Origin: Patescibacteria group bacterium
GTDB taxonomy: Bacteria; Patescibacteriota; Minisyncoccia; UBA6257; GWB1-50-10
Assembly (NCBI GenBank): GCA_040757555.1
Contig: JBFLWN010000001.1
Location: 53,128-117,127, forward strand
Length of the DNA stretch: 64,000 nt
Reading direction: 5' to 3'
Of this stretch, positions 32,477 through 34,829 are shown piece after piece. Under the pieces are notes generated by a model, which made no database searches, was not told the DNA's origin, and saw only the letters and a program-made list of their open reading frames with translations. A program made the position numbers and the translations under genes. Positions within the stretch are counted from its first letter, which is position 1; each line of letters begins with the position of its first letter.

Positions 32477-33766
32477 ATGTACAAGAAATTAAGCGCACCG
32501 CTAGTGGTGCAGGTAGAACTCACGGAAGGTTGTCCAAACAACTGCCTACACTGTTATAACTTTTGGAGAAAGGAGAAAAAAATTAAAGCAAAGTATCTTT
32601 CTCAAAAACATACCGAAGAGATTATAGAAAAACTCGCCCAACGCAAAATATTTCACATAATATTTACCGGCGGAGAACCCCTCTTAAACAAGAAAAGTCT
32701 TTTTTCCGGAATTGAAAAGTGTAACAACGCGGGAATAAGTGTTGGTATTAATTCCAGTCTTATTCCGATATCAAACATCGATGCACAAAAAATGAAGGAA
32801 ATGGGAATTTCATTAGTCCTCACCTCTCTTATGGGGCCAAATGCCGAAATACACGATGCAATTGCCCAAAGAGAAGGTTCTTTCCATGAAACAGTGCGAG
32901 GAATAAAAATTCTTCAAAATGTTGGTGTCCCTGTTGACGCAAATATTGTGATCTCAAAAAAGAATTTTTCCTATCTTCGAGAAATAGTACATCTAGCAAA
33001 AGAATTGGGGTTTAGGCATGTAAATTCAACACGTGCTGGATGTCCTGGGAATTGTTTAGATTTTTCTGATCTCTCGTTAACTACCGAAGAATTCAGAAAA
33101 TATCTTGATACTCTTTATGTGTCGGGGCAAGAAGAGGGAATACCGACAAGTGTCTTAGAAAGTTATCCTCTCTGTGGAATAAAAGACGCCGACGTATATC
33201 ACGCGTTCACAGGAAGACGATGCCTCGCCGGTATTACTTCGATGACTATTTCTCCAGAAGGGTTTGTGCGTCCATGTTCTCACTTTGATCAAAGTTATGG
33301 AAATTTAATCACAGAAGACCTCACAACAATCTGGGATAGAATGGAAGAGTGGCGAAACGGAAGCCTTATTCCTGAAACTTGTCGCTCGTGTAAAGCACTC
33401 GCTTTTTGCGGGGGAGGATGCCGCATGGAGGCAAAAATGATAAACGGTTCAATAAATGCGATCGATCCTTATGCCGTTCCCGAAGACGCGGAATATGCAC
33501 TATCGCGACTTCTCTCAATGGAAAAGAATAATACCCCCATGCCAAATTCATTCAGGGTAAATCCAAAGGTGAAGATGAGAAAGGAGGATTTTGGAGGAAT
33601 TGTCTTTACGGGAACACGTCTCTCTTGTTATCTCAATAAGGACTCGTTTGGATGGTTAGAAAAACTCGACAGAAAAAAGATATATTCAATTGATGATTTT
33701 TCTACCATGCCGAATACGTTCTTTACATTCCTACAAAAGTTATATAATAAGAATGCGTTAATTTAA
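32477..33766 (+). CDS. Radical SAM enzyme with SPASM domain (peptide-modifying maturase)
   Basis: 'CPNNCLHC' CX3CX2C; C-terminal 'C...CRSCKALAFCGGGCRME' SPASM. Confidence 0.8.
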   Translation: MYKKLSAPLVVQVELTEGCPNNCLHCYNFWRKEKKIKAKYLSQKHTEEIIEKLAQRKIFHIIFTGGEPLLNKKSLFSGIEKCNNAGISVGINSSLIPISNIDAQKMKEMGISLVLTSLMGPNAEIHDAIAQREGSFHETVRGIKILQNVGVPVDANIVISKKNFSYLREIVHLAKELGFRHVNSTRAGCPGNCLDFSDLSLTTEEFRKYLDTLYVSGQEEGIPTSVLESYPLCGIKDADVYHAFTGRRCLAGITSMTISPEGFVRPCSHFDQSYGNLITEDLTTIWDRMEEWRNGSLIPETCRSCKALAFCGGGCRMEAKMINGSINAIDPYAVPEDAEYALSRLLSMEKNNTPMPNSFRVNPKVKMRKEDFGGIVFTGTRLSCYLNKDSFGWLEKLDRKKIYSIDDFSTMPNTFFTFLQKLYNKNALI

Positions 33767-33800
33767 CAATCTTATCGTCCGCCAAAAGGAGGTGAGTAAT

Positions 33801-33950
33801 ATGAAACCCGCGGAAGAATTAAAATTCGGATTTGAAACAATACTCGAAGATAATGTTCAATCGATAGATGGAACAGAAAACTTTTCCGATTGTGATTGCT
33901 ATGACTGTGATTTCAATTGCGAAGAGTGTGATACAGATCACTTCGCGTAA
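33801..33950 (+). CDS. 49-aa Cys/Asp/Glu-rich RiPP precursor-like peptide (MKPAEELKFGFETILEDNVQSIDGTENFSDCDCYDCDFNCEECDTDHFA)
   Basis: RBS AAAGGAGGTGAG upstream; 34 nt after rSAM stop; terminator hairpin 33958-33985. Confidence 0.6.
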   Translation: MKPAEELKFGFETILEDNVQSIDGTENFSDCDCYDCDFNCEECDTDHFA

Positions 33951-33980
33951 TTAATATAAAAGCGGGATTATTCCCGCTTT

Positions 33981-34829
33981 TTACATTATATGTATCGATT
34001 TTTTGTAGAGAAAAAAATCTTTTTTTCTCTCAAATATCCCCTTTCCATATTTATCCCAAAGTAATTTCTTCTTTATAAACTCTTTTTCAGAGCCGTGACA
34101 CTGAAGTACCAACTCTGTGAGGAATATATCAAAATTCGTTTTATTTCTATATTTCCTCCTCACGAAAGATAAAAATAACTCCTCCTTTTTCTCTTTTTTT
34201 ATAAAAATATCTCGTATCTCCGGATTACCCATATATTCCCCCAACCCAAGCGTAGATTTTAATGGCTCTTCATTAAAAAGTGCCGCCGTAAGTGTTTCTT
34301 TTAAATAATGTTCTGACTCTTTTGAAAGTTTTATTTTCTTCTTTTTCTCAATCATTCTCACTTTTTCAAAGAAAATAAAATGTGAGATCTCGTGTATCGC
34401 CGTAGAAAGTGGGTGATAAAAATCATGTCTCCCAAAAAGAGGATTAAGTATCGAAAAGAAAAATTTATCTTTTCCAAACGGAGAAAAAGGAAGTATGGTA
34501 GGAAATGCAATATATTTTTTCCGCTTTTTCCACTGATAATCCATTGCACCTCCAAGCGCCACAAGAGCTTTTTCTTGTTTTTTTTCAACTTCCTTTTTTG
34601 TACTCCCAATAATGGGTCTTATTTTTTTCTTATATTTTTTATAGAACTCATCCCTAAAGAAAATAATTCCCCTCTTCTCACTTTTTGATTTTTTTATATA
34701 TACACCGAGAGATGGAAATGCCCGAATTATAATTTCCCTATGTTGGGGAAAATCAGGATGGTTTAAAAATCTCTGAAAGAGTTTTATTTCTTCAGGATTT
34801 TTCTCTTTTACAATGATTTTTGCGAGCAT
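33981..34829 (-). CDS. Hypothetical HExxH-motif protein
   Basis: 'TAIHEISHFIF' HExxH; Lys-rich. Confidence 0.4.
   Translation of the reverse strand: MLAKIIVKEKNPEEIKLFQRFLNHPDFPQHREIIIRAFPSLGVYIKKSKSEKRGIIFFRDEFYKKYKKKIRPIIGSTKKEVEKKQEKALVALGGAMDYQWKKRKKYIAFPTILPFSPFGKDKFFFSILNPLFGRHDFYHPLSTAIHEISHFIFFEKVRMIEKKKKIKLSKESEHYLKETLTAALFNEEPLKSTLGLGEYMGNPEIRDIFIKKEKKEELFLSFVRRKYRNKTNFDIFLTELVLQCHGSEKEFIKKKLLWDKYGKGIFERKKDFFLYKKSIHIM

Follow-up and report, generated by a model that had tools for sequence, protein, structure and literature searches.

What is made by a radical S-adenosylmethionine (SAM) enzyme whose gene is followed directly by the gene of a 49-residue peptide rich in Cys, Asp and Glu? 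The question is raised by a locus of a Patescibacteria group bacterium, found in a stretch of 64,000 nucleotides (positions 53,128 to 117,127 of contig JBFLWN010000001.1, assembly GCA_040757555.1) that is called the window below. The initial annotation of the locus had read it as a maturase with its adjacent precursor, i.e., a locus for a ribosomally synthesised and post-translationally modified peptide (RiPP), and had labelled the product a ranthipeptide of the freyrasin/SCIFF kind. In this work, the first part of that reading was upheld. We are highly confident that the enzyme and the peptide are a RiPP maturase-precursor pair, given their adjacency, the leader and variable core of the peptide, its purifying selection and a domain of the enzyme that resembles a RiPP recognition element (RRE). 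It is also probable that the pair forms, together with a convergent gene for a protein with an HEISH motif (the HEISH protein), a three-gene cassette with the pathway proposed below, whose family is widespread in Patescibacteria (Candidate Phyla Radiation, CPR). As for the ranthipeptide label, the composition of the core is compatible with it, while homology to the PapB, SCIFF and QhpD models or to CteB does not bear it out.

Precursor peptide and its linkage to the maturase

The layout that had been described was reproduced: a radical-SAM/SPASM open reading frame (ORF), a gap of exactly 34 nt between its stop codon and the peptide ATG, a ribosome-binding site and the 49-aa ORF (coordinates in Table 1). 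The GTG at position 33792 is an unlikely alternative start for the peptide since it overlaps the Shine-Dalgarno site. The full precursor, MKPAEELKFGFETILEDNVQSIDGTENFSDCDCYDCDFNCEECDTDHFA, corresponds to the database entry 'hypothetical protein AB1333_00455' and has no match in Pfam and none among the NCBIfam models at E <= 1. A leader with the motif GFETIL (residues 10-15) is followed by the C-terminal core DCDCYDCDFNCEECDTDHFA (residues 30-49), which contains 5 Cys, 6 Asp and 2 Glu; the counts of Cys and Glu agree with the initial annotation, which had given seven Asp for the last 20 residues.

Homologous peptides were retrieved for this precursor (P0122-P0124). An exhaustive search with its profile hidden Markov model (HMM) against 1.84 billion representative proteins (E <= 0.001) returned 20 cluster representatives, all of 42-62 aa and with the same leader and core architecture, and there were no off-target matches. 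In an alignment of 26 peptides, the leader follows the consensus G-F-E/V-T/S-I/L-L/F/V, in which the Phe (F11 in window numbering) is invariant, and is followed by a spacer of variable length. The core is built around a near-invariant D-C-x2-C-x3-C-x2-C segment (D32, C33, C36, C40 and C43). Around this segment the cores vary widely, from 10 to 48 residues and from 3 to 12 Cys, and the last Cys is missing in some members. Cys makes up 27% of the core residues, Asp 21%, Glu 10% and Asn 9%, Lys and Arg being nearly absent, and the residue next to a Cys is Asp, Glu or Asn in 66% of cases at position -1 and in 61% at position +1. The cores have few of the hydrophobic acceptors that are usual in sactipeptides. 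By comparing the locus with a close relative (L095), whose enzyme gene has 94.7% nucleotide identity to that of the window, five differences were found in the peptide ORF, four of them synonymous and one non-synonymous, and the 34-nt spacer including the ribosome-binding site was identical. This pattern of substitutions indicates that the small ORF is under purifying selection. The conserved leader, the variable core, the tight linkage described next and the purifying selection together argue that the small ORF encodes a RiPP precursor.

The linkage was followed in 80 metagenomic loci, fetched with a profile of 35 enzyme homologues, and in the contigs of individual homologues; counts refer to the loci with an enzyme identity of at least 40% and usable flanking DNA (n = 24). 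An adjacent ORF of 40-74 aa with the leader motif and a tail rich in Cys, Asp, Glu and Asn was present in every one of them (24/24). It lies directly downstream of the enzyme gene in 21/24 loci, and upstream, adjoining the third gene, in 3/24, which are copies of one Yanofskybacteria-type locus. Genomes named as Ca. Yanofskybacteria, Niyogibacteria and Woesebacteria show this linkage of enzyme and peptide too. The cassette is conserved in Parcubacteria-type lineages (Yanofskybacteria, Niyogibacteria, Paceibacterota) and as far as Woesebacteria. Moreover, more than 100 full-length homologues of the enzyme were found at 40-55% identity, and those with a source name all come from CPR bacteria; the window enzyme itself is 100% identical to a radical SAM protein of a metagenome-assembled genome (entry 'MAG: Patescibacteria group bacterium'). 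A scan of contigs with the single enzyme sequence returned just SPASM enzymes of 26-28% identity from Anaerolineae and Acidobacteriota and is uninformative on the distribution. The small ORF is thus conserved and co-occurs with the enzyme, which is the opposite of what the initial annotation had named as grounds for giving up its reading.

One locus speaks against an obligatory trio of genes: L006, a 12.8-kb contig of a metagenome-assembled genome, has the peptide gene and the HEISH gene with no adjacent radical-SAM gene. It was rejected as proof that the enzyme is dispensable, since a contig of this kind is too small to judge. In the same contig (1..5153), the pilus genes that the window has upstream of its cassette (see below) run straight up to the peptide gene, at the place where the radical-SAM gene is missing; this junction could be a remnant of synteny or the result of a rearrangement in which the maturase was lost.

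More distant loci show other arrangements. In L039 (2191..3513), a maturase homologue of 31% identity has its own C-terminus fused to a Cys/Asp-rich tail, …MPCAICEDCDSCALHDVCYNIHNCR, which could be a natural fusion of enzyme and substrate, or an artefact of assembly or a frameshift. In L030, L031 and L032 (3322..5509), the enzyme homologues (36-37% identity) have retained the C-terminal RRE-like domain and are followed by a gene for a Peptidase_MA_2 protein. A Cys/acid-rich ORF is absent from these three loci, and a short conserved upstream ORF (…NLTKSF.VLY…) might be another type of precursor.

Maturase family and predicted crosslinking chemistry

The enzyme matches the Pfam families Radical_SAM (PF04055, 81.6 bits vs a cutoff of 29.5) and SPASM (30.8 bits vs 21.5, residues 249-306), and Fer4_12 was also matched. 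The CX3CX2C motif for the [4Fe-4S] cluster is conserved in at least 90% of the 35 homologues, two of which are N-terminally truncated database entries that lack this region. The SPASM seven-Cys motif has the form CX9-15GX4C, gap, CX2CX5CX3C, gap, C. A full set of these cysteines had been claimed for the window enzyme; six of them are indeed present and invariant in the homologues, and the canonical last Cys is missing, with an invariant D330-P331 at about that position. Two extra Cys upstream of the SPASM motif, C193 and C233, are invariant or near-invariant as well. The first is part of a near-invariant T-R-A-G-C-P-G-N-C-x-D-F motif (residues 185-196) that directly follows strand 6 of the radical-SAM barrel. 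This RAGCPGNCxDF motif and the invariant D330-P331 may reflect an unusual ligation of an auxiliary cluster.

With regard to the subfamily, comparison with NCBIfam gave a flat score profile, here considered for the best 25 of 92 models with the window protein and for 25 of 36 families with the 35 homologues. The window enzyme reached none of the equivalog cutoffs, and the same profile was repeated across the homologues. The highest score was obtained with AhbD (127 bits vs a cutoff of 500), in a match that spans only the N-terminal core (residues 11-214), followed by GeoRSP (112 vs 400), NirJ2 (111 vs 500), PqqE (TIGR02109, 107 vs 381) and MftC (93 vs 265). The AlphaFold2 (AF2) model of the enzyme has a mean predicted local distance difference test (pLDDT) value of 91.9, and its best Foldseek matches are, in order, the anaerobic sulfatase-maturating enzyme (anSME; 19% identity, TM 0.64), SuiB, SkfB, ChlB and PqqE. 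It could be supposed from AhbD and NirJ2 as best single HMM matches and from anSME as best structural match that the enzyme is of a cofactor or haem type (AhbD-, NirJ- or anSME-like) and that the small ORF stands beside it by chance or has nothing to do with it. This explanation is effectively refuted by co-occurrence, and we give it hardly any weight: the small ORF is adjacent in every informative locus, is under purifying selection and has the architecture of a precursor, whereas the AhbD and NirJ2 scores remain far under their cutoffs. The matches to anSME, AhbD, NirJ2 and PqqE appear to be generic, all of them three- to five-fold under the family cutoffs, and a grouping with anSME or cofactor clades, the other outcome that would have spoken against a RiPP locus, was not borne out.

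The RiPP reading leaves the reaction to be considered. Crosslinking of the Cys residues as thioethers, of whichever kind, seems somewhat favoured, and a linkage to carbons other than C-alpha, as in ranthipeptides, is proposed only tentatively. The choice of Asp, Glu and Asn as acceptors is made because they are co-enriched and interleaved with Cys across the family and because there is precedent in PapB, QhpD and NxxcB. Thioethers between Cys and Asp or Glu are formed by PapB, whose substrates may have Cys-Xn-Asp spacings of n = 0-6 (PMC9413430). QhpD joins Cys to Asp at C-beta and to Glu at C-gamma, and the links formed by NxxcB are between Cys and Asn (PMC8326336).

Several results weigh against this choice. 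Known ranthipeptide maturases are not detectably nearer to the enzyme than other SPASM enzymes are: the PapB-family model NF047865 gives 70.1 bits vs a cutoff of 340, and the search of maturase models that the initial annotation had proposed placed the SCIFF maturase (TIGR03974) and QhpD models outside the best 25 of 92 for the window enzyme and the 25 of 36 for its homologues. In the comparison of sequence profiles with the PDB, the order was SkfB (E 4e-25), PqqE, SuiB, 8vpo, BlsE, anSME/MoaA and CteB, so that CteB (E 1e-8) ranks after SkfB, PqqE, SuiB and anSME. Furthermore, the CX2CX3CX2C spacing and the prevalent CxxC of the cores would fit a metal- or Fe-S-binding peptide equally well. 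PapB-family matches at E <= 1e-15 were found in 25/35 homologues (best 5.5e-21), and the StsB, AlbA and SkfB models score about level with PapB. From these comparisons, the enzyme family lies outside every known ranthipeptide maturase family as far as sequence can place it, and it is a SPASM clade of its own, at about the same distance from enzymes that form thioethers, from those that form C-C bonds and from cofactor enzymes. The ranthipeptide label is plausible from core composition only, and the enzyme sequence decides neither between C-alpha and non-alpha linkage nor between these and other SPASM chemistries.

The same cassette might accordingly perform another chemistry, such as sactipeptide S-C-alpha bonds, C-C or C-O crosslinks, epimerisation or a Cys-to-formylglycine-type oxidation, with acidic residues that serve solubility or metal binding and are not acceptors. 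That the nearest solved enzyme by profile, SkfB, is a C-alpha thioether former would fit this explanation, as would the structural order from anSME to PqqE and the level scores of StsB, AlbA, SkfB and PapB; SPASM enzymes catalyse many types of reaction (PMC8326336). On the other hand, Cys is co-enriched and interleaved with Asp, Glu and Asn across a very divergent family, the hydrophobic acceptors expected of sactipeptides are scarce, and the homology signals are uniformly weak, none of them singling out one reaction. We therefore regard another chemistry as rather unlikely.

It could also be that the peptide is chiefly a binder of metal or of a cluster, or that a small cofactor or metallophore is carved from it, as happens for pyrroloquinoline quinone (PQQ) or mycofactocin, with a housekeeping role in CPR bacteria. 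The parts of the locus, a SPASM enzyme, a PqqD-like domain and a peptidase without a transporter, are those of PQQ and mycofactocin; PqqE (107 bits) and MftC (93 bits) are among the better HMM matches; the near-invariant four-Cys CX2CX3CX2C is flanked by carboxylates; and the cassette is spread over a lineage of tiny genomes. In cofactor precursors, the reactive residues and the length are strictly conserved, whereas the cores of this family vary in length (10-48) and in Cys number (3-12) and sometimes lack the last Cys. The PqqE and MftC scores are, moreover, far under the cutoffs, and tailoring genes of the PqqB/C or MftD/E/F type are not present at the locus. A cofactor or metal-binding role in this sense is improbable, and a crosslinked RiPP is the preferred reading.

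How the leader would be recognised is suggested by the C-terminal part of the enzyme. The protein opens directly with the radical-SAM core, so there is no N-terminal recognition domain. In the AF2 model, its C-terminal residues form three strands (365-370, 373-378 and 381-387) and then helices (388-396, 405-408 and 413-424), and R368, E370, F372 and G373 (R-x-E-x-F-G) are invariant in the family. An alignment with six annotated PqqD proteins (plasmid-derived) by hhalign was full-length and in register, with a weak probability of 13% (E 0.002). Against an RRE, Pfam PqqD is absent from the C-terminal domains of 28 members, and the domain profile had nothing significant in the PDB, where the best match was FtbL (E 0.25). 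From its topology only, the domain would be an RRE-like winged helix, and that it binds the leader is a well-motivated inference.

Convergent zincin-like gene and the surroundings of the cassette

The description as a compact two-gene system has to be widened, since a third, convergent gene with a zincin-like HExxH motif is co-conserved. Its product has invariant H146-E-I-S-H150, E178, PTILPFSPF and GNPE motifs. The family comprises about 125 proteins, nearly all from CPR bacteria where a source is named, and has no match in Pfam or NCBIfam. The gene adjoins the enzyme and/or the peptide gene in about 20 of the fetched loci, and the peptide gene alone in L006. Its predicted fold is zincin/gluzincin-like. 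In distant loci without a HEISH homologue (L026, L034 and L030-32), the equivalent slot is occupied by a Pfam Peptidase_MA_2 protein (39.3 bits vs a cutoff of 32.4, HELCH...NEG). Two unrelated zincin-type proteins in one slot argue for a metallopeptidase as a necessary part of the cassette, in the simplest case to remove the leader, and we consider the HEISH protein a probable leader peptidase.

Two points stand against this role: no peptidase family could be linked to the HEISH protein by sequence and nothing significant was found with Foldseek, and HExxH proteins in RiPP clusters can be alpha-ketoglutarate/Fe hydroxylases. The HEISH protein could accordingly be an alpha-ketoglutarate/Fe(II) HExxH oxygenase that beta-hydroxylates core Asp or Asn, like ChlH, BpmH, PflC and PosC. 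No NCBIfam model supports this, the protein was not found to belong to the corresponding beta-hydroxylase family (IPR026337; ChlH, BpmH, PflC), the structural score is below that for peptidases, and a Peptidase_MA_2 protein takes its slot in the distant loci. A hydroxylase is thus unlikely, and removal of the leader remains the preferred function.

Two further ORFs with HExxH-type motifs flank the cassette, one with HELLH, which overlaps the 5' end of the HEISH gene, and one with HEGTH. Both were rejected as paralogues of the HEISH protein or parts of the system (hhalign probability 1.3% and 0.4%, respectively). When the related loci were searched by tblastn with the HELLH ORF, the one of the two so examined, no match was obtained.

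Between the stop codons of the peptide ORF and of the convergent gene lies a G+C hairpin, which is kept in L095; it is likely a bidirectional terminator common to both genes. Six-frame translation of the 64-kb window gave no other Cys/acid-rich or GFETIL-type ORF. A transporter, an immunity gene or a second precursor was not found within about 10 kb of the cassette, and no linked regulator was seen at the cassette loci.

Other features of the window were also recorded. About 9 kb upstream of the cassette, a type IV pilus set (PilB/T2SSE, PilO, PilN and PilM) lies with a ComF-like phosphoribosyltransferase (19077..24204). A C-terminal sorting domain of the type IX secretion system (T9SS) ends two proteins of about 295 aa, at 27842..28735 (-) and 31401..32282 (-), with Por_Secre_tail Pfam scores of 45 and 30 bits; the second also matches TIGR04183 (41 bits). 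Such domains are unexpected in a Patescibacteria genome, since neither an outer membrane nor a T9SS is known from CPR bacteria. The window has 18 tRNA genes, 12 of them in a dense region (39.6-47.6 kb) that includes a tandem tRNA-Cys(GCA) pair (45548..45715, -). A CYTH-domain protein (35716..36372) and a cupredoxin-domain protein (38918..39595) are encoded as well.

Table 1. Positions, in window numbering, of the cassette, its motifs and the flanking HExxH-type ORFs
Feature	Position (nt)	Strand	Basis
HEGTH ORF, 188 aa	30756..31322	+	HExxH motif; flanks cassette
Radical-SAM/SPASM maturase, 429 aa	32477..33766	+	ORF, Pfam
CX3CX2C [4Fe-4S] motif, C19/C23/C26	32531..32554	+	conservation in 35 homologues
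SPASM Cys, C249-x12-G262-x4-C267 and C302-x2-C305-x5-C311-x3-C315	33221..33421	+	invariant in 35 homologues
Putative RRE/PqqD-like domain, residues ~358-429	33548..33763	+	AF2 secondary structure, invariant residues
Ribosome-binding site, AAAGGAGGTGA	33785..33795	+	GGAGG at 33788-33792, 8 nt ahead of ATG
Precursor peptide ORF, 49 aa	ATG 33801 to 33950	+	ORF, homologous peptides
GFETIL leader motif	33828-33845	+	
Precursor core	33888-33947	+	
G+C hairpin, AAAAGCGGGAATAATCCCGCTTTT, A/T runs on either side	33958..33981		terminator scan and sequence
Orphan HEISH protein, 282 aa, convergent	33981..34829	-	ORF
E178 of the HEISH protein	34296-34298	-	family invariant
H146-E-I-S-H150 of the HEISH protein	34380-34394	-	family invariant
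HELLH ORF, 293 aa	34813..35694	+	overlaps HEISH gene 5' end, divergent

Proposed pathway and relation to known systems

We hypothesize that the product is made in the following way. Translation of the 49-aa precursor would begin at a separate, strong ribosome-binding site immediately past the maturase gene, and its GFETIL-type leader would be captured by the C-terminal RRE-like domain of the maturase. The radical-SAM core is expected to cleave SAM to the 5'-deoxyadenosyl radical, which would abstract a hydrogen from the core peptide, while the auxiliary Fe-S clusters of the SPASM domain would hold the substrate thiolate and accept the electron, as in established SPASM enzymology. Repetition over four to five Cys would give several intramolecular Cys thioethers in the D-C-x2-C-x3-C-x2-C-D segment, and the most plausible acceptors would be side-chain carbons of neighbouring Asp, Glu and Asn, as in ranthipeptides. 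The leader would then most likely be removed by the convergent HEISH...E zincin-like protein.

The absence of a linked transporter or immunity gene and the lineage-wide conservation suggest that the product may serve the physiology of its own producer and may not be a classical bacteriocin; its role may lie in metal handling, signalling or interaction with a host. The genomes of CPR/Patescibacteria are minimal, and the usual finding is that they contain few or no biosynthetic gene clusters (BGCs). Retention of the cassette in such reduced genomes implies that its function is not cheaply dispensable. One survey counted zero BGCs in its Patescibacteria MAGs and another only nine, and graspetides are the RiPPs highlighted in CPR so far. 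The remark that such loci are rarely described in CPR agrees with our searches: neither Pfam and NCBIfam nor the full-text literature open to searching, which excludes subscription journals, yielded a description of the family.

A further, speculative step would be to regard the family as a new, CPR-specific and widespread class of RiPPs, with a distinct SPASM clade, a C-terminal RRE and an undescribed pattern or chemistry of crosslinks on a hyper-acidic core, which could consist of densely nested Cys-Asp/Glu/Asn thioethers or of a metal-binding cage. We hold this to be doubtful. If it were true, the product would serve metal acquisition or the interaction of episymbionts with their hosts, and it would be among the very few conserved specialised metabolites of ultra-small bacteria. 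Whether or not it is a new class, the locus offers enzymology a new SPASM clade whose recognition domain has an unusual position, and an orphan, unannotated zincin-like family of about 125 members. Moreover, the natural core variants with 3-12 Cys could be used to probe the rules of thioether formation, and the compact cassette of three genes (about 2.4 kb) is amenable to heterologous expression.

Among known systems, PapA/PapB, which makes freyrasin with its Cys-X3-Asp beta-thioethers, shares with the window locus a SPASM maturase, an adjacent short precursor and Cys interleaved with Asp/Glu, and the tolerance of PapB for Cys-Xn-Asp/Glu with n = 0-6 would cover the spacings in the window core. 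In contrast to PapA/PapB, the core is D-C-x2-C-x3-C-x2-C and not six CX3D repeats, there is a zincin-like partner, and the host is a CPR bacterium and not Paenibacillus. The RRE of PapB-type enzymes is N-terminal, whereas the RRE-like domain of the window enzyme is C-terminal. The SCIFF systems (CteA/CteB, Tte1186) are alike in their minimal cassette without transporter or immunity genes, their short Cys-rich precursor and their lineage-wide conservation, from which a physiological rather than an antibiotic role has been argued (PMC8326336). The window peptide differs from SCIFF in its hyper-acidic core, Cys pattern and GFETIL leader, and the SCIFF peptide model TIGR03973 is not matched by it. 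QhpD is the SPASM enzyme whose Cys-Asp C-beta and Cys-Glu C-gamma chemistry is most compatible with the window core; unlike the window enzyme, it modifies the gamma subunit of quinohemoprotein amine dehydrogenase inside the qhp operon, and no qhp genes were found near the window locus.

The PQQ (PqqA/D/E/F) and mycofactocin (MftA/B/C/E) systems also combine a short peptide, a SPASM enzyme, a PqqD-type domain and a peptidase. In the window cassette, by contrast, the PqqD-like domain forms the C-terminal end of the enzyme itself, and the cores vary in length and Cys number; the Glu-X3-Tyr of PqqA is absent from the window peptide and pqqB/C genes are absent nearby. The HEISH protein is unlike the M1 peptidases of class III lanthipeptides (AplP/EryP) and other MA-clan RiPP peptidases in its 282 aa and its own PTILPFSPF/GNPE motifs, and it has no sequence-detectable homology to M1 or to any Pfam peptidase family. 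The enzyme does not belong to AhbD/NirJ or to anSME, and it has a conserved precursor gene beside it. Overall, the cassette most resembles the ranthipeptide/SCIFF systems in function and, in its list of parts, also those of PQQ and mycofactocin. Its general type, a radical-SAM/SPASM RiPP, is familiar; the maturase clade, the precursor family and the partner family are new, CPR-specific and widespread.

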